Source of the DNA: an uncultured Acidobacteriota bacterium | GTDB lineage: Bacteria; Acidobacteriota; Blastocatellia; Pyrinomonadales; Pyrinomonadaceae | Assembly: GCA_963785125.1 (NCBI GenBank) | Contig: CAWATU010000004.1 | Coordinates: 51,260-115,259 of the forward strand | Direction of reading: 5' to 3' | DNA length: 64,000 bases | In this document: in pieces, positions 9,526 through 64,000 of the stretch | How positions within the stretch are numbered: position 1 is the stretch's first letter | Layout: each line of letters opens with the position of its first letter | Position numbers and translations under genes: made by a program | The notes under the pieces: model-generated | What the model was told of the DNA's origin: nothing | The model's input: only the letters and a program-made list of their open reading frames with translations | Databases searched by the model: none

Positions 9526-9607
9526 AGAGGTTAGAGACCAGTCAGGCCGGGGGTCAGTTAGGACGATAACTCCTAACTGACCCCCGGCCTGACGGTCTCT
9601 AACCTTT
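9526..9607. repeat. long hairpin with heptamer-periodic arms (GGTTAGA type)
   Basis: ~36-bp stem with one bulged A and a 7-nt loop (CGATAAC). It fills the whole spacer between convergent stops at 9522 and 9610. Confidence 0.85.
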
Positions 9608-13743: not shown

Positions 13744-13815
13744 GGTGAATGGTGAATAGTAAATGGTAAATGGTTAAGCCAACTTCCATTCACCATTTAC
13801 TATTCACCATTCACC
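13744..13815. repeat. long hairpin, GGTGAAT-heptamer family (copy 1)
   Basis: 30-bp arms (GGTGAAT GGTGAAT AGTAAAT GGTAAAT GG) with one mismatch; loop TTAAGCCAACTT. The stop codon of the 13800..14756 gene lies inside the right arm. Confidence 0.9.
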
Positions 13816-14773: not shown

Positions 14774-15133
14774 ATGAGTCGGCTCAACAAATTTCAGGAG
14801 ATACACGCACAGTACCGCCGGCACGGCTGGCGGCTCGCGCGCGTGCTGGCGCGGCCCGAGTCGCTCGCCGAGATGCGCGGCCGCGGCGACGCCGCCGCGA
14901 CGTTCGAGGGCGTAGCCGCGGCCGAGTCGGACGTGGACGCGATGTGGTTCTCGCGCCCCTCCGCGGAAGGGCGCGAGGCTTGGGAGCTGCGCCTCGTCGG
15001 CGACACGCCCTACGCGCTCTTCGAGCTGTTCGAGCCCGACGAAGAGGAAGAGGAGCGCGAAGACGTGCGCCGCGAGATGGAGGCGCGACTGCGCGAGTAC
15101 GTCGCGCCCGGAACGCAGAACGAGGAACGTTGA
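14774..15133 (+). CDS. small acidic hypothetical protein
   Basis: 119-aa ORF divergent from the previous gene. The last ~7 codons and the stop are contributed by the left arm of the downstream hairpin. Confidence 0.5.
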   Translation: MSRLNKFQEIHAQYRRHGWRLARVLARPESLAEMRGRGDAAATFEGVAAAESDVDAMWFSRPSAEGREAWELRLVGDTPYALFELFEPDEEEEEREDVRREMEARLREYVAPGTQNEER

Positions 15134-15192
15134 AGGATGAACTGAAAGCCCCTCGCCTTCAGTTCATCCTTCAACGTTCCTCGTTCTGCGTT
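15112..15192. repeat. long perfect hairpin with heptamer-periodic arms (AACGCAG type)
   Basis: 35-bp perfect stem (AACGCAG AACGAGG AACGTTG AAGGATG AACTGAA) with an 11-nt loop, between convergent stops at 15133 and 15198. Confidence 0.9.
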
Positions 15193-16475: not shown

Positions 16476-16694
16476 TTGGAAGTAACCAAGGCCCTCGCGG
16501 CGCTCCAGCCGCTCTACGGCAAGGACAACGTCGAGATCGTCACCGAGACGGGCGCGCGCGTCCGCGGCGTCGTCCGCAGCCTCAAACAGACGCAGGCGCT
16601 CACACGCCCCAGCGTCAAGATCGAACGCCCCGACGGCGAAGTCGTCAAAATTCACTTCTCAGCCATCACCGAGATCATCGACCACAACCGTTGA
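16476..16694 (+). CDS. small hypothetical protein
   Basis: 72 aa with a TTG start, preceded by AGGGAGG. Confidence 0.5.
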   Translation: MEVTKALAALQPLYGKDNVEIVTETGARVRGVVRSLKQTQALTRPSVKIERPDGEVVKIHFSAITEIIDHNR

Positions 16695-16696
16695 AA

Positions 16697-16817
16697 AGCC
16701 GTGAACCGTGAACCGTCAACCGTGACCAGAGAAAATGGGTTCTTCCTCTGGTCACGGTTGACGGTTCACGGTTCACGGCTCTTTCTGGTCACGGTTTACG
16801 GTTCAAGGTTTACGGTG
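16697..16817. repeat. long perfect hairpin, CGTGAAC-heptamer family (copy 1), plus an extra third arm
   Basis: 35-bp arms at 16697-16731 and 16746-16780 (CGTGAAC CGTGAAC CGTCAAC CGTGACC) with a 14-nt loop. An additional same-sense arm-like segment lies at 16785-16817 (CTGGTCACGGTTTACGGTTCAAGGTTTACGGTG). Confidence 0.9.
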
Positions 16818-16866
16818 TTACAGTATCGGCCCGTCGGCCGCCTCGGGGCCGCGGGAAGAGTTTTGA

Positions 16867-17522: not shown

Positions 17523-17601
17523 AAGGCAAACTTCAAAAAGCAAAAGGAGGATGAGAAACACGCTGCTTCTCATCCTCCTTTTGCTTTTTGAAGTTTGCCT
17601 T
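17523..17601. repeat. long perfect hairpin, AAGGCAA-type heptamer arms
   Basis: 35-bp perfect stem with a 9-nt loop. The right arm overlaps the ispH stop codon (17600-17602). Confidence 0.9.
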
Positions 17602-18446: not shown

Positions 18447-18534
18447 GTATTTTCGATTTGCGATTTCAGATTTTTGATTTTGATTTTTAGGCCGGGGCTT
18501 CAAATCGAAAATCAAAAATCTGAAATCAAAAATT
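18447..18534. repeat. AT-rich hairpin of GATTTnn heptamers immediately upstream of ispH
   Basis: Core stem 18462-18486 / 18502-18527 (~25 bp, one bulge) with the loop containing GGCCGGGGC. It fills the spacer between stop 18533 and the ispH start 18445. Confidence 0.85.
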
Positions 18535-31531: not shown

Positions 31532-31613
31532 AAGGCGGTGAATGGTAAATAGTGAATGGTGAATGGAAGTCGGCTTATCCATTCACCATTCACTATTTAC
31601 CATTCACCGCCTT
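31532..31613. repeat. long perfect hairpin, GGTGAAT-heptamer family (copy 2)
   Basis: 36-bp arms with loop AAGTCGGCTTA, which is the reverse complement of the copy 1 loop apart from about 1 nt. The right arm overlaps the stop of the 31612..32145 gene. Confidence 0.9.
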
Positions 31614-32145
31614 AAAAGATTTCCGAGCCCTTGCGCAGCACCGACCAGCCTACGTCGGTGAGGGTATGGCTGGCGGCGCCCCACCAGAGGCCGGCGAGCA
31701 CGGCGGCCAACGCGCGCGGCCCAAAGCCGTAACCGGCGGCCGACGCCTCGACGAACCGCCACACCTCAACCACCTCGCGCCACCCCGGCGCCACGCCACC
31801 CGAGAGGAAGACCGCCCGCGCGTAGACGCACACCCACGCCACGAGCGTCAACACGGCTGCGAAGTAGACGACCCGGATCAGCGTCCCGAAGACGATGCCA
31901 TGCGACCAGCGCGAGCGGTGTCGGAAGACTACCTTGTACGGCCACCACAGAAGCCGCAGCGGCCCCCAGCGCGTGTACTGCCGCGACTGGATGTCGAGGT
32001 CCGGCCCGAACATCAGCCCCCCGAACAGCATCGCCACGGTCGCCGCCGCGCTCAGCCACACGCTCCCCGTCAGCCCCCACGCCGCCGCGAACGTCGGCGG
32101 CGCCAGCACCAGCGTCACCATGTCGTGTGTTTTTCCCGAAGGCAT
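31612..32145 (-). CDS. DUF2227-like putative metal-binding membrane protein
   Basis: Start at ATG 32145 (MPSGKTHDMVT). Several TM segments and conserved His residues (SRWSHG, ASHTLTD). Confidence 0.6.
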   Translation of the reverse strand: MPSGKTHDMVTLVLAPPTFAAAWGLTGSVWLSAAATVAMLFGGLMFGPDLDIQSRQYTRWGPLRLLWWPYKVVFRHRSRWSHGIVFGTLIRVVYFAAVLTLVAWVCVYARAVFLSGGVAPGWREVVEVWRFVEASAAGYGFGPRALAAVLAGLWWGAASHTLTDVGWSVLRKGSEIF

Positions 32146-32149
32146 AAGA

Positions 32150-32265
32150 GCAGTAGGCAGTAGGCAGATGACAGTCGGCAGCCGCTCCACGTTAAGGACG
32201 TTGGAAAACTAAGACGAAGCTGCGACAGCGGCTCTCTTAACTGCCATCTGCCTACTGCCTACTGC
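32150..32265. repeat. GGCAGTA-family palindromic element, copy B
   Basis: Arms GCAGTAGGCAGTAGGCAGATGACAGT (32150-32175) and ACTGCCATCTGCCTACTGCCTACTGC (32240-32265). The ~64-nt spacer contains an inner 7-bp pairing (AGCCGCT/AGCGGCT). Confidence 0.8.
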
Positions 32266-32351
32266 TTATATCATGCGGCGCGCGGCGGAGACCAGCCGTT
32301 TGCCCGCGCGTCGGGCGTGCGTGTACACTGTCGAGCTTCGTCGGAACGGTC

Positions 32352-36803: not shown

Positions 36804-36885
36804 GCGCTTAGGCCATAAGACGAGCGCCTTAGGTCATAAGATCATCGTCTTATGACCTAAGGCGCTCGTCTTATGGCCTAAGCGC
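36804..36885. repeat. long perfect hairpin (38-bp stem) with 21-nt internal periodicity
   Basis: Left arm GCGCTTAGGCCATAAGACGAGCGCCTTAGGTCATAAGA, loop TCATCG, and an exactly complementary right arm, between convergent stops at 36772 and 36890. A small extra hairpin (AAGACG/CGTCTT) lies at ~36775-36789. Confidence 0.9.
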
Positions 36886-38692: not shown

Positions 38693-38786
38693 ACTTTAAG
38701 ACCTTTATCCGAATGAATTTGGCCCCGCCCGGGCGGAGCAGCGGGGCCGGTTCTATTACGATTTGAGGGGAGAAAATGTTTTGGGA

Positions 38787-38885
38787 GCAGATGGCAGCAG
38801 GCAGTTAAAAACCTTTCTAATCACGAACCCTGCGGTTGTCATCAACAACGTCCGCATCGCGGAGCCCGCTGCCTACTGCCTACTC
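38787..38885. repeat. GGCAGTA-family element, degenerate copy C
   Basis: Left arm GCAGATGGCAGCAGGCAGTTAAAA, right arm GCTGCCTACTGCCTACTC, ~60-nt spacer. The right arm overlaps the mnmA stop. Confidence 0.55.
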
Positions 38886-40213: not shown

Positions 40214-40687
40214 ATGAGTGAAGAGAGCACAAGTCGCCTCGAAAACGCGATGGCGAAGCTGGCGGACACCTCGGCGCAACACGACGAGCGGCTCGCCGCG
40301 CACGAAGAGAGGATGACCGCGCACGAAGAGAGGATGGCCGCGCATGAAGAGCAACTCGCGGCGCACAAAGAGCAGCTCGCCGTGAACAAAGAGCGGCTCG
40401 CCGCAATAGAGCGTACGAATGAGATACTCAAAGCGTTGGCCGCCGACGCCCATCAGTTGCTTGCCAACGTGCAGCGGCGCGTCGGAGGTTTCGAAAAGGT
40501 CAACGCCACTTTGGTCGAACTGCTCGGGCGCCATCACGAGGGGGTAACGGAGATGCGGGCGGCGCAGGCCAACGCCGACGCCAAGATTGCCCTCCTCGCG
40601 GAGTCGCAGGCGCATACCGACAGGCGGCTCGATGCGTTGATTGACATTGTGCGGACACGCTTTAACGGCCAGTCTGAAAGTAGTTGA
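40214..40687 (+). CDS. coiled-coil hypothetical protein with tandem heptad repeats
   Basis: AQHDERL AAHEERM TAHEERM AAHEEQL AAHKEQL AVNKERL AAIERTN, encoded by 21-bp tandem DNA repeats at 40274-40420. Confidence 0.6.
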   Translation: MSEESTSRLENAMAKLADTSAQHDERLAAHEERMTAHEERMAAHEEQLAAHKEQLAVNKERLAAIERTNEILKALAADAHQLLANVQRRVGGFEKVNATLVELLGRHHEGVTEMRAAQANADAKIALLAESQAHTDRRLDALIDIVRTRFNGQSESS

Positions 40688-46230: not shown

Positions 46231-46481
46231 CAGCCGGCGCGTTTTTCCCTGCCGGTGCGGGCATTTTCCTCGGCGGTGCGCGCACATTTCTCGGCAGTGC
46301 GCGCTTCAGACACCGTGGTGCGTGCATTTTCTGGTCGGTGCGCGTCACAGCGTGGCGGTGCGCGTCGAGATTCGAGGCGGTGCGCGTTTCAGACGCGGCG
46401 GGCGCCTTAATTCCCTGCAAGTGCGTGTAAAGTTCGAGCCGTGCGGACTTAAACGAAGCGCGTGCGGGTTCAGAGCGCGGA
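46231..46481. repeat. degenerate tandem array, ~12 units of ~21 bp (core GGTGCGCG)
   Basis: Core positions are 46235, 46254, 46275, 46296, 46317, 46337, 46357, 46379, 46401, 46420, 46440 and 46461, with spacing of 19-22 bp. The ORFs across it (46227..46430 +, 45956..46420 -) look like repeat artefacts. Confidence 0.75.
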
Positions 46482-47422: not shown

Positions 47423-47435
47423 AAGTTGAAGTACT

Positions 47436-47504
47436 GAGTGCTGAAGACTGAGGACTGAGTTGAAGACAACGAGTTCTTCACTCAGTCCTCAGTCTTCAGC
47501 ACTC
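47436..47504. repeat. long hairpin with nnACTGA heptamer arms
   Basis: ~30-bp stem (GAGTGCTGAAGACTGAGGACTGAGT(T)GAAGA) with one bulge and an 8-nt loop, between stop 47510 and start 47422 on the same strand. Confidence 0.9.
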
Positions 47505-47509
47505 AATAC

Positions 47510-48262
47510 TCATTCTATCCCTTCCAGCGGCCACTGCCGGTCGATGAATTCGAGGTGGAGGCGCGGGATGCCATCCGCGCCCGAACGCGACGCGCGCACG
47601 GCGGCGACGATGGAGAGTCCCGTCTCCGTGCTGGTCAGTCGCACGAAGCGCCCGCGCTCGACCTGAAGCATCGTCCAGACGGCCGCGCCGCGGCGGCTGA
47701 TGTTCTCCGTTACCGTCTGCTCGCTGGCCTCCACGCGCCCCTCCGCGTCGAAGACCTCCAGCCGCACGCCGAGCGCCATCTGGAGCCGCGTCAGCTCGGA
47801 GCGCTCGCCGACCGACTGCTGCTCGGCCTCCTTCAGACGCCAGAGGTTGTCCTCCGCCGAGACCGAGGTGGCCTCGTAGAGCGTCGAAGGGTCGCGGACG
47901 TAGCTCGCCGGTGGGTGCTTGCCCGTGAACGCCACCCCGACCTCGTAGCGCACGCCGCCCGCCTCCTCGCCCGCGAACTCCGGCCGCACCGAGAGGTGGC
48001 AGACCAGCGCCCAGACACGGTACTGGTCTTCGATGTGGTCGAAGCAGCGGAGTTGGCGCGGCATCGGCATCGTCAGGTGCAGGAGCCGGCCGCGCTCGGT
48101 CGGGCGCGTGAGCGGGAAACGCGCGCCGAACGGTGTCACGTCCACCAGCCGCGACATCTCCGTCCACTCGTGACCGGCCGTCTCGCGGCATTGGACGCGG
48201 AGGGGGAGCGCCAGCTTGATGCGCTCGCGCACGCGGTTCCGTTTGTGGTCTGACTCGGACAC
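47510..48262 (-). CDS. PilZ domain-containing protein (tentative, two PilZ-like halves)
   Basis: RVRER (RxxxR) followed by DVTPFGA (D-x-S/T-x-x-G-like). The second half shows a similar pattern (ENISRRGA). Confidence 0.6.
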   Translation of the reverse strand: MSESDHKRNRVRERIKLALPLRVQCRETAGHEWTEMSRLVDVTPFGARFPLTRPTERGRLLHLTMPMPRQLRCFDHIEDQYRVWALVCHLSVRPEFAGEEAGGVRYEVGVAFTGKHPPASYVRDPSTLYEATSVSAEDNLWRLKEAEQQSVGERSELTRLQMALGVRLEVFDAEGRVEASEQTVTENISRRGAAVWTMLQVERGRFVRLTSTETGLSIVAAVRASRSGADGIPRLHLEFIDRQWPLEGIE

Positions 48263-59393: not shown

Positions 59394-60169
59394 GCGTGTT
59401 CTGACTCAATCCCCCCTGTAGATTCTTTCGGCGCGAACTCACCTTCGACCCAGACTTCGCCGTCCTCGAAGAACTCTTTCTTCCAGATGGGGACGGTGCG
59501 TTTGAGTTCGCGGATGGCCCACTCGCAGGCTTCGAAGGCGGCGCGGCGGTGCGGGGCGCTGACAGAGATGACGACGGAGGTCTCGCCGATCTCGGTGCGG
59601 CCGGTGCGGTGGACGATGCCGATGTGCGCGATGTCGAAACGACGGTGCGCTTCTTCACCGAGGCGTTGCATCTCGGCGAGCGCCATCGGGGCATAGGCTT
59701 CATAGACGAGGTGGAGCGTGCGGCGCCCGCGCGTCCACTCGCGCGCGTAGCCGTCGAGCGTGACGGTCGCGCCGCAGCGGGAGGGTACGACGCGGCGCGC
59801 AACGGCGCCCACATCAATCGGCTCGGTCGTCAGCTCGAAGAAGTCTTCGGCGTCGTCCGCCTTTGGGGGCTCGCCGTCGCCGCCGCTCACTGGCGGGAAG
59901 AGCGCGAGTTCGTCGCCGTCCTCCAACTCCACGTCGAGGTCGCGCGCGTACCCCTGGTTGACGGCGACGAGGAGCGAAGAGCCAAAGCGGACGAGGTCTG
60001 GATACTCTTCGAGTACGCGCGCAAAGGCAGAGCGCGCCGTCGCGCCCGGGGCGAGCGTCAAAAGGGCCTCGTCGGCCGCGGCCTCGCGCGCCGCGCCGAA
60101 GAAGAGAACGCGCACGCGCACCTCGCGCGACTCCGCGGCCTCGCTCAGCCTGTCCGTTTCCTGCGTCAT
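59390..60169 (-). CDS. MoaD-MoaE fusion (molybdopterin synthase sulfur-carrier plus catalytic subunit)
   Basis: N-terminal ThiS/MoaD-like module ending ...LALFPPVSGG, then MoaE (HRTGRTEIGETSVVISVSAPHRRAAFEACEWAIRELKRTVPIWKKE). Confidence 0.85.
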   Translation of the reverse strand: MTQETDRLSEAAESREVRVRVLFFGAAREAAADEALLTLAPGATARSAFARVLEEYPDLVRFGSSLLVAVNQGYARDLDVELEDGDELALFPPVSGGDGEPPKADDAEDFFELTTEPIDVGAVARRVVPSRCGATVTLDGYAREWTRGRRTLHLVYEAYAPMALAEMQRLGEEAHRRFDIAHIGIVHRTGRTEIGETSVVISVSAPHRRAAFEACEWAIRELKRTVPIWKKEFFEDGEVWVEGEFAPKESTGGIESEHA

Positions 60170-60870
60170 TCTTCGAGGTCGATCTTCTTGCCGGCGTGGC
60201 CGTTGCCACGCGCCAGCTCGTGCGTGCGCGCGCGCTCCTCGTAGGCGGTGACGGCCTGCGCGAGCATCGTGTGGAGGCGGCGCAGACGCTCGGAGGTCGA
60301 GCGCGTCTCAAGCAGGCGCTGCTTCGTCTCGGCGTCCATCTCGACGACGGCCGCGACGAGGAAGGAGAGGCGCTCGGGGTCGTCCTGCGGGAGTTCGGGG
60401 AGCGCGCCGCGCTCCTCGTTGGCGGTGCGCATCGCGCGCGCGATGCGCATGAACAGCTCGGCCACCTCTTCGGCCCGGCGCGCGACGACGCTCGCGTCCT
60501 CCTCCTCGTCCTCGAAGAACTCGACGCGCGCGACGAGGTACGGGTCGCCGCGCTCGACGTACTCCTCGACGCGGTAGCGCGCCGCCCCGACCGTCAGGAT
60601 GTTCGAGCGGCCGTCGGGCAGCGGCTGCACCTCGACGACCTCGGTCGCGCAGCCGACGTGCCCCACGGGCGGGCGGTCTTCTGAGACTGCGTCGGAGACG
60701 AAGTAAGAGAGGCCGAAGAGGTTGTTCGCGGCGCGCACGTCGGCCAACATGCGGCGGTAGCGCTCCTCGAAGATGTGGAGCGGCAGCGGCACGCCGGGAA
60801 AGAGCACGAGCGGCAGCGGGAAGATCGGCAACTCCCGCACGCCGCGCACCTTGTCGAGGGCTTCAGACAT
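60166..60870 (-). CDS. LON N-terminal (substrate-binding) domain protein
   Basis: LPIFPLPLVLFPGVPLPLHIFEERYRRM. No AAA+ or protease part. Confidence 0.8.
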   Translation of the reverse strand: MSEALDKVRGVRELPIFPLPLVLFPGVPLPLHIFEERYRRMLADVRAANNLFGLSYFVSDAVSEDRPPVGHVGCATEVVEVQPLPDGRSNILTVGAARYRVEEYVERGDPYLVARVEFFEDEEEDASVVARRAEEVAELFMRIARAMRTANEERGALPELPQDDPERLSFLVAAVVEMDAETKQRLLETRSTSERLRRLHTMLAQAVTAYEERARTHELARGNGHAGKKIDLEE

Positions 60871-60876
60871 AAAAGT

Positions 60877-60971
60877 CGTGAACCGTGAACCGTAAACCGT
60901 GACAAGTAAGAACAGGCTTTAATCCTGTCACGGTTTACGGTTCACGGTTCACGCTCCTTTCACGGTTTACG
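60877..60971. repeat. long perfect hairpin, CGTGAAC-heptamer family (copy 2), plus an extra half-arm
   Basis: 28-bp arms at 60877-60904 and 60926-60953 (CGTGAAC CGTGAAC CGTAAAC CGTGACA) with a 21-nt loop. An extra CACGGTTTACG lies at 60961-60971. Confidence 0.9.
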
Positions 60972-60977
60972 CGCCCG

Positions 60978-62348
60978 TCACTTGTCACTCGTCACTGCGG
61001 TCGTGGCGCTCCGCTCCAGCGCGCCGAGGGCCGCGGGGGAGGGGGCCGGCTCCCTCTCGTCGGGCCGCGCGCGCGGCTCGACCTTCTGTTCGATGAGTTC
61101 GAGTATCTGCTCGGGCGGCTCGTCGCCGAGGGCGCGGCGCTTGGCTTCGAGCACCAGCTCGGCCATCTCTCGCGCGCGGTCGCGGTAGCGGTTGTCGCGC
61201 GCGATGAGGTCTTCGACGATGCGGCGCTCGCGGTGCGCACGCGAGGTGTCGGCGTCGAGCCCCGCGGCGACGGCGTACTCGACGGGCACGCTCTGATTCT
61301 TGAGCATGACGTGGAGCGCGCCCGTCGCGGCCGACGCCTCGTCGCGCATCTTGCGCATGTCGAGGAGCGAGTTCTTGAAGCCGAGATGTCCGCGCAGGTT
61401 GATCTCGACGATGGGCGCGGGGGCGCCCGACTCGGGGTCGTGCGGGCGCGCCTCGCGCTTGACCGTGTCCGCGACGCGCTCGTGCACGGCGTCGGGGTCT
61501 TCGGCGCCGGAGACATCGACGGTCAGACGTTGGAAGGGTCGCTGGACGTAGTCGTCGATGAAGGTCGCTTTGACCGCGCGGTCGTCGTCCACTTCGACGA
61601 GATAGAGGCCGCGCTCCTCGCGGTACTCGTCGATGGAGCAGGCTTCGAGCGAGCCGGGGTTGAAGGCCCAGTTGTCAATCTCAAACTTCTTGTGCGTGTG
61701 GCCGAGCGCAACGTAATCGACGAGCGTGCGCAGTTCCTTCAACTTCTCGACCGAGAGCGCGGGGATGGGGCGGTTGAGCTGCCCCTCAACGTCTGTGTGC
61801 AGCAGAAGGATGTGGAAGAGCCCTTCGCCGCGCGCGGCGCGCAGAGACTCGGCGAGCATCGGCATCGCGGCGTTGGCCGAGGTGCCGTACCAGTGCGTGC
61901 CGTAGATGCGCGCGCCCTTGATGTCTATGTAAGAGCCCGTGTGCGACTCCTCGTCCCACGGCACCATCTGCCAGGGCAGAGCGTTCTCCTCAGTCTCCTC
62001 GCGGCGCGCGGGCTCAAGGAGGATGAAGAAGCCCGCCTGCGAGAAGGAGCGCATCCAACTGTAGTCGGAGACGGCGTCGCGTCGGTCGTGGTTGCCCTCG
62101 ATGGCGACGACGGGGATGCGGTGGTCTCTGAGTATCTGGAGGCCCGCGAGCGCGTGGTTCATCGTCTGCGGGTCGATGTTGCGGCGGTCGAAGAAGTCGC
62201 CCGCGATGAGGACGAAGTCCACTTCGTTAGGTATCGCGTGATGCTCAATCACGTCGTACCAGCTCCGAAAGAAGTCCTTCGTCCGCTCTTCGAGGTTGTA
62301 CCGCCGGCACCCGAGGTGCACGTCCGACATGTGTAAAAACTTAATCAT
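60978..62348 (-). CDS. SbcD/Mre11-like metallophosphoesterase nuclease
   Basis: Motifs SDVHLG, AGDFFD and EGNHD, and later GHTH. Long charged C-terminal region. No sbcC/rad50-like gene adjacent. Confidence 0.8.
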   Translation of the reverse strand: MIKFLHMSDVHLGCRRYNLEERTKDFFRSWYDVIEHHAIPNEVDFVLIAGDFFDRRNIDPQTMNHALAGLQILRDHRIPVVAIEGNHDRRDAVSDYSWMRSFSQAGFFILLEPARREETEENALPWQMVPWDEESHTGSYIDIKGARIYGTHWYGTSANAAMPMLAESLRAARGEGLFHILLLHTDVEGQLNRPIPALSVEKLKELRTLVDYVALGHTHKKFEIDNWAFNPGSLEACSIDEYREERGLYLVEVDDDRAVKATFIDDYVQRPFQRLTVDVSGAEDPDAVHERVADTVKREARPHDPESGAPAPIVEINLRGHLGFKNSLLDMRKMRDEASAATGALHVMLKNQSVPVEYAVAAGLDADTSRAHRERRIVEDLIARDNRYRDRAREMAELVLEAKRRALGDEPPEQILELIEQKVEPRARPDEREPAPSPAALGALERSATTAVTSDK

Positions 62349-62465
62349 CCTATACGACTCTGGCCTGACTGTTTACCGATAAGGGCAGCTCTTAAACGTC
62401 ACTGTTGTAGGGCACATTATACAGTAGGCGGTAAGCAGATGGCAGCGGGCAGTTCGAGGCCGAAA

Positions 62466-62864
62466 GTTGAGACTCTGAGACGAAAATTTGGCTCTCCGTG
62501 ACGGAACTTTTCGTCTCGGAGACGGAACGTCGGGTCTCTCAGACGGAATCTTCACTCTCCGAGAAGGAAAGTCGGGTCTCCGAGAGTCAACTTTGGGTTT
62601 CGGAGACGGAAATTTTCGTCTCAGAGAGTGAACGTTGACTCTCCGAGAAGGAAAATTGGGCCTCCGAGACGCAACGTTGACTCTCCGAGATGGAAAGTCG
62701 GGTCTCCGGGAGTGGAAATTCAGTCTCGGAGAGTCAAAATTGACTCTCCGAGACTGAATTTTGACTCTCGGAGAGTCAACGTTCACTCTCTGAGACGAAA
62801 ATTTGGGGCTCGGAGGCGGAACGACGGGCCTTCAAGGCGGAAAGTCGGGTCTCCGGGCTCAAAC
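62466..62864. repeat. tandem array of 19 units of a 21-bp palindromic repeat (consensus GAGAGTCAA-NN-TTGACTCTC-N)
   Basis: TCTC-N-GAGA dyad centres fall at 62476 + 21n (n = 0..18), with no indels. The array is flanked by a GGCAGTA-type arm at 62422-62454 and a partial complement at 62868-62878. Confidence 0.9.
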
Positions 62865-63028
62865 CCCCTACTGCCCGCTCCCCGGCGCGGGCTCTTTGAA
62901 CAGCTTCTCGACCATGTCGCCGAGGCGGGAGAGTGCGGCCGGGCTGACGCCGATGCTGATGAAGCGGACGGCGCCCCGACTCTCATATTCTTCACCTCCG
63001 TCGTCAAGACTAAGTGGCGGATAGGGCG

Positions 63029-64000
63029 TCAGGTCAGAACCACCCGCGGTAGCGGGTGGTTCTGACCAACTTCCGCGGCCCCGGCAGCGGCCTCTGAGAC
63101 GAGGATGGCGGGGCGCTTGCCCGTCTCGCGCTCGTAGCCTTCGGAGAGGGCGCGCTCGAAATCTTCCAGCGCCGCGCGGCGGACGAGGCTGACGGTCGAG
63201 CCGCCGAAGCCGCCGCCGGTCATGCGCGCGCCGAGGACGCCGTCGAGGCCACGCGCCAACTCGACCAGCACGTCCAGCTCCGGGCTGCTCACCTCGTAGT
63301 CGTCGCGCAGGGAGTAGTGTGACTCGTACATGAGCCGCCCCATCTCTGCGAGGTCGTCGGCACGCAGTGCGCGCGCGGCCGAGAGCGTGCGCTCGTTCTC
63401 GGTGACGATGTGGCGGCAGCGGCGGCGGATGGGGTCGGGAAGGACGTGGGAGTATTGTTGAAAGTCGGCGACACTCACGTCGCGCAGTTGTGTGATGCCG
63501 GGCAGATGCTCTTGCAGCAACTCGACGCCGCGGGCGCACTCGGCGCGACGGACGTTGTACTCCGAGGACGAAAGCTCGTGCTTGACGCGCGTGTCGGCGA
63601 CGACGAAGGCGGCCGAGCGAGTGTCGAGCGGGACGGGCTCGGCCTCAAGACTGCGACAGTCGATGAGGAGCGCGTGCCGCTCGCGTGCGAGCGCGGCGAC
63701 GAACTGATCCATGATGCCGCAGAGCGTGCCGACGTACGTGTGCTCGGCCTGCTGCCCCGCGAGCGCGAGCGTCACGCCGTCAATCTCCTGCCCCGAAACG
63801 CGCACGAGCGCGAGCCCGACGGAGATTTCGAGAGCCGCCGAAGAGGATAAGCCCGCACCGGCCGGCACGTCCGAGTCGATGAGCAGGTCTGCGCCCGAGA
63901 GCTTTATGCCGCGCGACTCAAGCGCCTGCGCGACGCCTTCGACGTAGTCGAGCCAGACGCCGCGGCGCGGTGGGTTGGGGTGGTCGAGGTCGAAGCTCAA
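63029..64000 (-). CDS. galK: galactokinase, 5' end outside window
   Basis: GHMP kinase motifs PAGAGLSSSAALE and MTGGGFGGSTV; typical GalK segments HTYVGTLCGIMDQF. Confidence 0.9.
   Translation of the reverse strand: MSFDLDHPNPPRRGVWLDYVEGVAQALESRGIKLSGADLLIDSDVPAGAGLSSSAALEISVGLALVRVSGQEIDGVTLALAGQQAEHTYVGTLCGIMDQFVAALARERHALLIDCRSLEAEPVPLDTRSAAFVVADTRVKHELSSSEYNVRRAECARGVELLQEHLPGITQLRDVSVADFQQYSHVLPDPIRRRCRHIVTENERTLSAARALRADDLAEMGRLMYESHYSLRDDYEVSSPELDVLVELARGLDGVLGARMTGGGFGGSTVSLVRRAALEDFERALSEGYERETGKRPAILVSEAAAGAAEVGQNHPLPRVVLT
63032..63067. terminator. hairpin overlapping the end of galK
   Basis: GGTCAGAACCACCCGC / GCGGGTGGTTCTGACC 16-bp stem with loop GGTA. The last ~12 galK codons are encoded by it. 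Confidence 0.5.

Follow-up and report, generated by a model that had tools for sequence, protein, structure and literature searches.

Phased arrays of a dyad-symmetric 21-bp unit form a dispersed intergenic family in Pyrinomonadaceae and related Acidobacteriota

Acidobacteriota are abundant in soil, and the architecture of their genomes has been little studied. The DNA analyzed here, a stretch of 64,000 nucleotides referred to throughout as the window, carries an array of tandem 21-bp units between a gene for an SbcD/Mre11-like metallophosphoesterase and a galactokinase-like GHMP-kinase gene (Table 1). The former had been recognized in an earlier reading made from the letters alone (hereafter the sequence-only reading), and that identification was upheld, its product being a Metallophos protein with homologues named SbcD/Mre11. 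The syntenic segment to which both genes belong spans 13 kb and comprises galK, sbcD, a Lon-like gene, ThiS-MoaE, dUTPase, and others. The array was shown to fill the loop of a GGCAGTA-type hairpin repeat, which has a deleted redoxin gene on one side and, on the other, the -10 box belonging to the sbcD-like gene. On the minus strand the predicted sbcD promoter takes its -35-like CTGCCA (62445-62440) from the proximal arm of this repeat, and the array lies upstream of the gene at about -45 to -445 from that promoter. The -10 box and the leader that follows it (62415-62349) are kept in all relatives, array or no array. In relatives an intact AhpC-TSA/redoxin gene stands between galK and sbcD; its 3' remnant in the window explains why fragments of protein-like ORFs adjoin the array, and the end of this remnant is overlapped by the degenerate distal arm. 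The junction of arm and array (CGAGGCCGAAA/GGCAGTTCGAGGCCG) recurs in L025, a different locus, and in L043, an orthologous one.

Table 1. Coordinates of the array, its flanks, and the adjoining genes in the window.
Feature	Position	Strand	Remarks
Tandem array, 19 x 21 bp	62466..62864	.	Consensus GTTGGGTCTCCGAGACGGAAA
Near-perfect 42-bp palindrome	62718..62759	.	Two adjacent units; 20-nt arms and 2-nt centre
GGCAGTA-type heptamer-arm hairpin element, proximal arm	62422..62454	-	
Arm-array junction	62455..62465	.	CGAGGCCGAAA; reads GGCAGTTCGAGGCCG together with the arm end
GGCAGTA hairpin element, degenerate distal arm	62865..62884	-	GGGGAGCGGGCAGTAGGGG; compared with L052 and L054
AhpC-TSA/redoxin gene, 3' remnant, ~112 bp	62868..62978	-	95-97% identity to L052 and L053
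TATAAT -10 box of the sbcD-like gene	62416..62421	-	
SbcD/Mre11-like metallophosphoesterase gene	60978..62348	-	Neighbour, outside the element
GHMP-kinase (galactokinase-like) gene, 3' part	63029..64000	-	Neighbour

The array consists of 19 head-to-tail units without a single indel, set in register on a TCTC-N-GAGA core with dyad centres at 62476+21n. Such strict phasing had been claimed in the sequence-only reading and was borne out by Tandem Repeats Finder, which returned a period of 21 over 62455-62815 together with higher-order rows of 42, 63, and 84. All 16 matches to TCTCNGAGA (at most one mismatch) within 62400-62900 fall in phase 0, and the remaining 63.5 kb of the window holds only 51; a two-unit pattern matched four times in the window versus none in 100 shuffles. 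The conserved columns of the unit are T2 T3, T7 C8 T9 C10, G12 A13 G14 A15, and A19 A20, and on the plus strand most units carry arms of a ‘G-type’. Other details of the sequence-only reading fared less evenly. Decay of conservation, described there as running toward both edges, is mainly on the high-coordinate side, the cores of the final three units (62802, 62823, 62844) being degenerate and the left edge still good; the second dyad GTCAA-NN-TTGAC said to lie midway between units is present in some of them only, the general junction motif being AA-NN-TT. The unit arms are mostly non-palindromic outside TCTC-N-GAGA and TT/AA. The 42-bp palindrome formed by two of the units is the core of an array-level fold-back. 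An assembly artefact is unlikely as the source of the array because the units have diverged and arrays of this kind recur across numerous independent assemblies, among them contigs of 0.7-2.1 Mb.

Most galK-sbcD spacers in relatives (SbcD 87-94% identical) carry no array. Comparison of 11 non-redundant orthologous sbcD upstream regions revealed an array in only one, L043, and of a different unit type: there the arm and junction are those of the window, but they adjoin about 29 units of an A6-tract type. Neither array nor arm is present at the locus in L001/L002, L003, L045, L046, and L053. Where the window carries its array, L048 has a plain GGCAGTA-arm hairpin and L054 a mini-hairpin, while L052 retains both arms around a loop of ~180 nt in which no 21-bp periodicity was obvious by eye; a different heptamer hairpin occupies the same spot in L044. 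These loci confirm that the array is bracketed by a GGCAGTA arm and a partial partner, both arms being carried there by L048, L052, and L054, and that it takes the loop position of this dispersed element, as the sequence-only reading had held. The sbcD locus thus carries 0, 19, or about 29 units across relatives. The presence of an array there was shown to be lineage-specific, with the sbcD neighbourhood incidental, and its absence from most close relatives means that it is dispensable at this site.

A search with the unit pattern, a kind of check put forward in the sequence-only reading, uncovered a dispersed family of variable unit number. Scanning of genome contigs yielded 38 loci, and at 34 of these a phased array of four or more units was present; for part of the sample the search pattern itself fixes the conserved columns. 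About 25 similar arrays were found across at least eight acidobacterial MAGs, with as many as nine loci in one (JAFAVK01) and a typical length of 11-19 units. All units run head-to-tail, G-type and C-type units occur in blocks, and exact phase is kept by 223 of the 225 cores in 21 arrays. The acidobacterial arrays sit between high-GC3 genes, which may be tandem, divergent, or convergent (divergent pairs flank three of the arrays), usually beginning 9-60 nt past a stop codon, and no consistent strand polarity relative to the flanking genes was found (four arrays versus four). Their neighbours are unrelated housekeeping genes and include dapF, hemE, and genes for FHA, S41 and S8 peptidase, ECF sigma factor, and kinase proteins. 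At L015, L025, and L026 the arrays are likewise nested in GGCAGTA arms, and arrays of the family also co-occur with further repeats, the CAGTACCGCGAGCGG and GGTCAGAACCACCC hairpins. No shared mobile or partner gene was found beside the arrays, non-acidobacterial loci included; no transposase was seen among the neighbours examined, and no RAYT within the 64-kb window and the 8-kb loci. An array persists at dapF in three MAGs (11, 13, and 15 units) and at hemE in two. No conserved unit order was found between the orthologous dapF arrays, and where arrays share a locus their units can be matched one to one only weakly, the best variable-column identity being 0.56. A few MAGs from other phyla, Bacteroidales included, carry look-alike arrays of similar architecture. 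The array in the window was therefore shown to be one copy of a dispersed, non-coding 21-bp family that is intergenic in Pyrinomonadaceae and related Acidobacteriota, and as such its position beside an sbcD-like gene is coincidental. The unit sequence was not found in a literature search, in which general queries gave only reviews on REP, BIME, and related elements.

Conservation within the family acts at the level of DNA and is dyad-symmetric, with TT, TCTC, GAGA, and AA being kept. The information profile across the unit mirrors itself about the dyad (r=0.94), and mean information by codon position is flat (0.81/0.84/0.80). In an ascertainment control, a still small sample of 170 units outside the selection of the search pattern, the conserved columns were retained (C8 0.92, T9 0.89, G14 0.90, A19/A20 0.86-0.88). 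Variable columns behave very differently: adjacent units are identical at 0.44 of them within an array versus 0.36 between arrays, against a chance value of ~0.37 estimated from column frequencies, and units that are near random between neighbours in this way are not recent copies of one another. In the dapF arrays identity is 0.81-0.94 in conserved columns and about 0.5-0.57 in variable ones, and four-fold sites of the dapF gene are 0.76-0.83 identical. What is conserved in the core is base identity and not pairing, as deviations were compensated in only 1 of 14, 2 of 19, and 4 of 44 cases and the arm columns 4-18 and 5-17 pair below chance frequency. On these counts the idea that conservation maintains a hairpin or cruciform of the unit is rejected, and the emphasis placed on such structures in the sequence-only reading is not supported.

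Single-strand folding of the window array is nevertheless far stronger than that of shuffles on both strands (z -12.9 and -12.3), a by-product of repeating a palindromic core. Curvature was estimated with a wedge model, which predicts 49-65 degrees per 42 bp, whereas shuffles reach 19-22 and column-permuted periodic controls 22-27; the array of L043, unrelated in sequence, gave the same result. Any 21-bp repeat accrues some predicted curvature. Under the Bolshoy-Trifonov model 0-3% of controls reached the observed value, and a model with the AA wedge alone gave a weaker effect, non-significant versus control for two arrays.

Several established classes of element were considered. A CRISPR array was rejected, in agreement with the sequence-only reading, the units being contiguous without spacers and the syntenic 13 kb being devoid of cas genes. 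No tRNA or tmRNA was found, and the array gave no Rfam match at gathering thresholds, only sub-threshold matches to generic hairpins (miRNA). A plasmid or phage origin was likewise rejected after blastn searches of plasmid and phage collections returned no match; a single pattern match in a viral contig lies inside a coding region and is due to chance.

For the REP clusters and BIMEs of Enterobacteria and Pseudomonas, binding of host proteins and effects on mRNA have been reported (PMC2817692; PMC3733652), and these elements resemble the arrays in being short dyad-symmetric units in extragenic clusters at many loci, placed for the most part past the ends of ORFs where the flanking genes are co-directional or convergent, strain-variable, and mosaic with other repeat motifs. 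The arrays share with them this multi-copy extragenic placement, but are strictly head-to-tail at 21 bp with no linkers, whereas BIME orientations are described as alternating with linker motifs; the terminal GTAG or CGTC tag of REPs (PMC3733652) is absent as a conserved feature of the 21-bp unit. Stem pairing is not kept by complementary changes, hairpins thus lacking the support of covariation, and no RAYT was seen in the window or the 8-kb loci. The MIRU/VNTR minisatellites of Mycobacterium (Supply et al.) have units of about 46-101 bp that are not dyad-symmetric. Like them, the arrays are tandem intergenic repeats, sometimes within operons, at many loci, related genomes differing in unit number, and their unit length is a multiple of three that leaves frames open; unlike them, the variable positions are nearly as different between neighbouring units as between arrays while core and phase are kept. 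The parC centromere of pSK41 is made up of 20-bp tandem repeats bound by ParR, and each repeat of an iteron or parC array is a protein-binding site, such that a curved or superhelical nucleoprotein filament is possible. Contiguous repeats of ~20-22 bp about two helical turns apart are common to these systems and the present arrays, whose spacing of exactly 21 bp falls within the ~17-22 bp usual for plasmid iterons, although the units are dyad-symmetric in their core and not purely direct repeats. Iterons and parC, however, occur once or a few times per replicon beside rep or par genes, whereas the arrays occupy many chromosomal loci and nothing similar exists on the plasmids searched. No rep gene adjoins the arrays examined, the window locus being chromosomal and collinear with relatives, and no partition gene of the parAB or parMR type is among the annotated neighbours of ten arrays and the window array. 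Phased A-tract DNA provides a further parallel, an A/T-rich junction recurring every two helical turns with a curvature predicted above controls under the Bolshoy-Trifonov model, less so with the AA wedge alone, and, as is seen upstream of promoters, the window array lying just upstream of a -35 element; some arrays, however, are flanked by convergent genes, a setting in which a promoter would not be expected, and their curvature is a model prediction.

Identity-dependent, dyad-symmetric conservation at a strict two-turn spacing is the pattern expected of a protein-binding array. On balance it appears probable that the arrays are BIME- or minisatellite-like intergenic elements that would act as helically phased, curved series of sites for a dimeric protein. 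Each unit would represent a dyad-symmetric recognition core, TT-N3-TCTC-N-GAGA-N3-AA, in which selection may hold base identity and the exact spacing of two helical turns while nine other positions drift freely. A candidate dimeric DNA-binding or nucleoid-associated protein could then bind double-stranded DNA along a single helical face, with the phased A/T junction adding intrinsic curvature, and the outcome would be a structural nucleoprotein or curved-DNA element like BIMEs or parC, distinct from hairpins, RNA genes, and peptide repeats. Arrays would be gained, lost, and rebuilt by whole units, probably through recombination or slippage between units and copies, and the window array, given its location, could modulate the sbcD promoter as a side effect. 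The protein-binding part of the sequence-only reading hence fits the conservation pattern, but its plasmid-type iteron or centromere part does not suit a chromosomal family with up to nine loci and no rep or par genes. That the arrays serve as chromosomal platforms on which the putative dimeric protein polymerizes into a curved or superhelical filament, a counterpart of ParR-parC that would occupy dozens of sites between genes in Pyrinomonadaceae, is a rather doubtful extension.

The arrays may instead be selfish or neutral minisatellites that the host tolerates in intergenic ‘repeat junkyards’, their units being propagated through slippage or unequal recombination, or else by a recombinase or transposase dedicated to them. 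The contrast between conserved and variable columns could then reflect the needs of an amplification or mobility mechanism and not a host function, the core being a requirement of the spreading machinery or of a slippage intermediate. Variation in presence and unit type among close relatives at one locus, the unconserved unit order at dapF, the company of GGCAGTA arms and other hairpins, and the lack of an associated gene all agree with this, as do the tandem reiteration and uneven strain distribution reported for REPs (PMC3733652). It is harder to reconcile with cores and exact phase that are retained while variable columns approach randomness between neighbours, with the persistence of the dapF and hemE arrays across species, with similar architecture in other phyla, or with neighbourhoods in which no transposase was seen, and we regard it as possible but unlikely. 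Less likely again is a REP-like function in RNA, in which the fold of a 3' UTR or intercistronic region would block 3'-5' exonucleases or terminate or attenuate transcription in either orientation. Array starts 9-60 nt downstream of stop codons in spacers of convergent and co-directional genes would suit such a role, as would a palindromic core that reads alike in RNA from either strand and the strong folding of both strands, and many REPs, which mostly lie downstream of ORFs, are thought to act through RNA (PMC3733652). In L033 the open frame into dapF starts inside the array, which is separated from the ATG by no more than a short tail without periodicity; the array must therefore be within the transcript there. 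A generic stem-loop barrier, though, needs neither exact 21-nt spacing nor base identity, and the core shows no compensatory covariation, with arm columns pairing below expectation. The balanced strand polarity and the three arrays between divergent genes also weigh against it, and the window array, itself upstream of the sbcD promoter, matches no Rfam family and has no predicted terminator-like site.

A role tied to sbcD, the array being a cruciform or hairpin substrate or a regulator of SbcCD, or else a plasmid-type iteron or centromere, is suggested by its place directly upstream of the sbcD-like promoter, the resemblance of tandem ~21-bp dyad-symmetric units to iteron and parC arrays, and strong single-strand folding. 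This reading is largely refuted and very improbable: an array of any kind, and then of another type, was present in 1 of 11 orthologous regions, on which an sbcD-specific element is rejected, and about 25 others adjoin unrelated genes at up to nine loci per genome; palindromy of the arms is disfavoured, and chromosomal synteny, missing rep and par genes, and plasmid and phage collections with nothing similar speak against the plasmid variant. Equally improbable is a protein-coding heptad repeat, [FV][DGP]S[PR]R[VK][NK], readable from either strand, a reading that for the acidobacterial arrays is also largely refuted. The heptad frame is indeed the longest open frame on both strands, yet, reasoning from column frequencies, the conserved columns enforce this openness automatically, and every frame in the window is interrupted by stops, the best covering 363 and 366 of the 399 nt of the array, in line with the earlier statement that no ORF spans it. 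There is no three-base periodicity, the third positions of TCT and AGA being invariant while the centre, at codon position 2, varies freely; such codons and a GC content of ~52% are atypical where genes have a GC3 of 0.86-0.95, and some arrays lie between convergent genes. The array frames gave no Pfam match and no homologue at E<=1e-3 among 5.8 billion proteins. The one case in favour of coding is L034, from a Prevotellaceae MAG: its 20 in-frame units are preceded by a signal-peptide-like N-terminus and followed by a domain of which an array-free paralogue exists. Rickettsia palindromic elements are single elements of about 100-150 bp, and this case recalls them in having a palindromic repeat in frame inside an unbroken gene; the arrays are, by contrast, tandem, and in Acidobacteriota intergenic.

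The combination of two-turn phasing, a core conserved by identity, near-random variable positions, and nesting within heptamer-arm hairpins is unusual, and points to selection that acts on protein binding or on the geometry of double-stranded DNA. Should a protein that binds them exist, the arrays would be the sign of a novel nucleoid-organizing or regulatory system; if not, they would still constitute a hypervariable (VNTR) marker and a hazard to gene callers and assemblers in these genomes. In either event, a tempting link to SbcCD has been removed as unfounded.

Two minor observations concern the repeats around the array. The final codons of the GHMP-kinase gene traverse another hairpin repeat with a 16-bp stem (63032-63067), and the GGCAGTA arms that flank the window array contain GTAG at every heptamer junction.

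Upstream of the sbcD-like gene lies a genuine array that codes for no protein and belongs to a dispersed family of 21-bp tandem arrays with strict phasing; a heptamer-arm hairpin repeat encloses it. The 19 strictly phased, indel-free units described in the sequence-only reading were borne out by Tandem Repeats Finder, which returned a period-21 array at 62455-62815 with higher-order rows of 42, 63, and 84 bp, and by an in-register read-out (19 units at 62466-62864, dyad centers at 62476+21n, zero indels). With ≤1 mismatch allowed, TCTCNGAGA matches 16 times within 62400-62900, always in one phase, and only 51 times in the other 63.5 kb of the window; the two-unit pattern TCTCNGAGANNNAANNTTNNNTCTCNGAGA occurs four times in the window vs none in 100 shuffles. 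The core is degenerate in the final three units, and GC content is ~52% in the array region vs ~68-70% in its flanks.

The claim that the array occupies the spacer position of a dispersed element also holds, as the window carries three plain copies of the GGCAGTA-arm element with short loops. Immediately next to the downstream arm is a -10-like box (TGTTAAAAT at 623-631, TGCTTATAT at 32263-32271, and TGTATAAT at sbcD), and the GTAG tag of RAYT-associated REPs is also present at each heptamer junction of these arms. Further long intergenic hairpins in the window have arms of 23-41 nt that are 82-100% complementary; those beginning at 13744, 16694, 31532, 60877, 47430, and 18456 have tandem-heptamer arms (GGTGAAT, CCGTGAA, ACTGAGG, TTTTGAT, and others). 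Flaws in one arm of the heptamer-arm hairpins are mirrored in its partner, and several heptamer types are found at two or more loci.

Coordinates of repeat elements and of genes adjoining the array (positions in the window)
Feature	Position	Remarks
GGCAGTA-arm elements	491-620; 32144-32271; 38785-38880	3-5 heptamers per arm, loop ~45-64 nt
GGCAGTA-arm element hosting the array	62422-62454 with ~62865-62884	
Near-perfect 42-bp palindrome	62718-62759	inside the array
Long intergenic hairpins	13744-13815; 16694-16822; 31532-31613; 60877-60953; 47430-47510; 18456-18533; 17523-17601; 15112-15192; 9541-9593	
sbcD-like gene	starts 62348	minus strand; Metallophos protein, homologues named SbcD/Mre11
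TATAAT box and leader of sbcD-like gene	62349-62421	kept in every relative examined
AhpC-TSA/redoxin gene 3' remnant	62868-62978	95-97% identical to the gene's 3' end
galK-like GHMP-kinase gene	ends 63029	minus strand

Homologues assign the window to Pyrinomonadaceae (Acidobacteriota), and its 55.4-64 kb segment is collinear with relatives, which were compared upstream of the sbcD -10 box (SbcD 87-94% identical). Neither hairpin nor array is present in L001/L002, L003, L045, L046, or L053. In L048, a plain GGCAGTA-arm hairpin whose loop measures 56 nt fits exactly into the gap from the upstream gene to TGTATAAT; the same type of arms encloses 8 nt in L054 and ~180 nt, by eye without obvious 21-bp periodicity, in L052. 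In L044 another heptamer-arm hairpin, of ATGATGA type, sits on the exact spot of the window's element, and in L043 the window's proximal arm and junction are followed by ~29 units of a different 21-bp sequence at the orthologous position (1797-2400 of Ga0196978_1000008). That unit, CGAGAAAAAAGCTCGGACNTC, combines an A6 tract with a 14-bp CTCGGAC/GTCCGAG palindrome; its array contains one 1-bp slip and resembles the window type only in its last few units. On the antisense strand, each L043 unit resembles a hairpin followed by T6. Since loop contents differ among relatives, the loop of the GGCAGTA hairpin is hypervariable at this locus, and the array here is lineage-specific, unrelated to sbcD and no conserved feature of it. 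The spacer holds only one predicted sigma-70-like site, with the TATAAT as its -10 and a -35-like hexamer (CTGCCA) within the GGCAGTA arm, which would place the array at ~-45 to -445 and leave it out of the sbcD transcript. L052, L053, and L054 retain a complete redoxin gene between galK and sbcD; in the window's genome it is deleted, and its remnant accounts for the protein-like ORF fragments beside the array.

A two-unit pattern scan of genome contigs yielded 38 loci, 34 of them with phased arrays of at least four units under a simple chaining rule; two loci with identical flanks (L027 and L037) are not independent. Some 25 arrays came from Acidobacteriota/Pyrinomonadaceae MAGs in at least eight assemblies, with up to nine array loci in a single MAG and some arrays on 0.7-2.1 Mb contigs. 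After extension, 22 acidobacterial arrays comprised 11-19 units each, and all of them lie between genes of GC3 0.81-0.97. Neighbors include dapF, hemE, S41 and S8 peptidases, an FHA protein, an ECF sigma factor, and a Ser/Thr kinase. An array precedes dapF at one position in three MAGs (11, 13, and 15 units) and another adjoins hemE in two. Nesting in GGCAGTA arms recurs at L015, L025, and L026, L025 being 77% identical to window positions 62421-62731, junction GGCAGTTCGAGGCCG included.

Across 302 acidobacterial units, T2 T3, T7 C8 T9 C10, G12 A13 G14 A15, and A19 A20 carry 1.4-1.9 bits and columns 1, 5, 6, 11, 16, 17, and 21 only 0.1-0.4, with G and C about equally common at columns 4 and 18. 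Because a match to the search pattern already dictates the conserved columns, the profile was recomputed on 170 units outside any pattern match, and conservation persisted (C8 0.92, T9 0.89, G14 0.90, A13 0.84, A19/A20 0.86-0.88, T2/T3 0.79) with a mirror symmetry of r=0.94. Units are directional (G-type, TTGGG-TCTCNGAGA-CGGAA; C-type, its reverse complement), and arrays consist of blocks of both types, the window's plus strand being mostly G-type. Deviating units were rarely compensated at column pairs 8-14 (1/14), 9-13 (2/19), 10-12 (4/44), 2-20 (3/40), and 3-19 (3/44), pair 7-15 (24/54) being the sole one to covary, and Watson-Crick pairs were fewer than expected at columns 4-18 (83 vs 132) and 5-17 (67 vs 94). 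Each half thus conserves its base identity independently, a pattern that a dimer reading the double helix would produce. Pairing as the conserved feature is ruled out by the uncompensated core and TT/AA deviations. Single-strand folding is very strong (z -12.9 as DNA, -12.3 as RNA) owing to the repeated palindromic core and the 42-bp palindrome; it is a by-product, and the earlier emphasis on hairpins and cruciforms is not upheld.

Curvature was predicted with a dinucleotide wedge model using Bolshoy-Trifonov parameters. Arrays had predicted bends of 49-65 degrees per 42 bp, vs 19-22 for shuffles and 13-15 for two coding controls; column-permuted arrays, keeping period and composition, gave 22-27 degrees, and 0-3% of them reached the observed value. 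The effect weakened for two arrays under an AA-wedge-only model. Like curvature is predicted for the A6-type array of L043, unrelated in sequence, and for two arrays from other phyla.

The latter belong to nine matching loci in MAGs of Bacteroidales, Prevotellaceae, Dysgonamonadaceae, Tannerellaceae, Planctomycetaceae, and Spirochaetia. All seven displayed of the nine have 21-bp arrays of 6-20 units, built from true palindromes (TTGAC-TCTC-S-GAGA-RTCAA; columns 4/18 G/C) that resemble the acidobacterial family beyond the search-pattern positions. Most lie outside long ORFs beside ordinary genes. Kinship with the acidobacterial family is tentative, since 596 Gb may contain enough 21-bp tandem repeats to yield a handful of matches by chance and some MAGs may be misbinned. 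In the Prevotellaceae MAG locus L034 (2-946, minus strand), twenty units run in frame as FDSPKVN heptads, preceded by an N-terminus resembling a signal peptide and followed by a domain with an array-less paralogue at L034 2154-4391, so such arrays can be tolerated inside a gene.

Of the 225 cores in 21 arrays, 223 stay exactly in phase, and the two exceptions sit at array edges. At the nine variable columns within one array, adjacent units are 0.44 identical and units two apart 0.47, units from different arrays being 0.36 identical (chance ~0.37, calculated here from column frequencies); with neighbors this near chance, units are not recent copies. At the dapF locus (proteins 87-90% identical, four-fold sites 76-83%), conserved array columns are 0.81-0.94 identical and variable ones ~0.5-0.57, with unit order only weakly collinear. 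Bacterial DNA that evolves neutrally commonly gains indels, and their near absence at such substitution levels suggests that spacing is under selection; alternatively, whole units may turn over very fast, replaced from a diverse pool. A selfish or neutral minisatellite, its core serving its own amplification, is a possible but unlikely account of these dispersed arrays. A dyad core kept by base identity with deviations uncompensated, drifted variable positions, near-absolute phase, orientation independence, and predicted curvature suggest that double-stranded DNA, phased every two turns, is what a function or a requirement of propagation acts on. The most economical model, which we modestly favor, is an array of putative dimer-binding sites that would form a curved nucleoprotein element, its proposed role like that of BIMEs and its geometry like that of iteron or parC arrays. 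It is doubtful that the arrays form a chromosomal, multi-locus binding platform for a putative filament-forming DNA-binding protein.

An RNA element of REP-like character in 3' UTRs and intercistronic regions would fit the RNA folding and settings such as the convergent L015, whose array leaves just 10-30 nt of spacer before either stop codon; genes flanking the acidobacterial arrays are of mixed orientation (8 co-directional, 3 divergent, 3 convergent), no Rfam family reached gathering score for the array, and we consider this reading improbable. A tRNA search was negative as well. A coding reading is very improbable. 'DSPRVNF' is the only long open frame, yet its codon position 2 is the freely varying center, and TCT and AGA hardly vary at their third positions; mean information by codon position is 0.81/0.84/0.80 in every frame (170 non-pattern units), neither array ORF matched Pfam, and the 137-aa ORF has no homologue among 5.8 billion proteins. 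Constraint on the units thus acts at the DNA level, dyad-symmetrically, and not at the protein level. An sbcD-specific, iteron, or centromere reading, suggested by the array's position and layout, is just as hard to credit: most relatives listed lack an array at sbcD, no rep, par, transposase, or sbcD genes are among the annotated neighbors of the family's arrays, and plasmid and phage collections contained no DNA similar to it, the one viral-contig match being a chance one in coding sequence. Neither the unit sequence nor a description of the family was found in the searchable literature; elements of like general character (REP/BIME, MIRU, iteron-like arrays) are well known.

Other repeats and gene arrangements were observed alongside. 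Across 60166-62348, the sbcD-like gene has a gene for a LON substrate-binding domain after it instead of sbcC, an order shared by L001, L003, and L054. A 16-bp-stem hairpin at 63032-63067 (GGTCAGAACCACCCGC-TACC-GCGGGTGGTTCTGACC) lies within the last codons of the galK-like ORF, lengthening it relative to L003; its arms are present in L001 with a ~70-nt insert, a related copy flanks the L036 array, and it looks like another repeat family. At 36804-36885, a perfect hairpin has 38-nt arms with an internal 21-bp period (CTTAGGCCATAAGACGAGCGC). The six-copy 21-bp tandem repeat at 40280-40404 reads as a HEERLAA-like heptad within an open frame of 194 codons and probably encodes an ordinary coiled coil. 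Finally, about seven direct repeats of GGTGCG(C/T)G recur every 20-22 bp at 46243-46387, with no convincing ORF, in an iteron-like layout unrelated to the 62466-62864 array.
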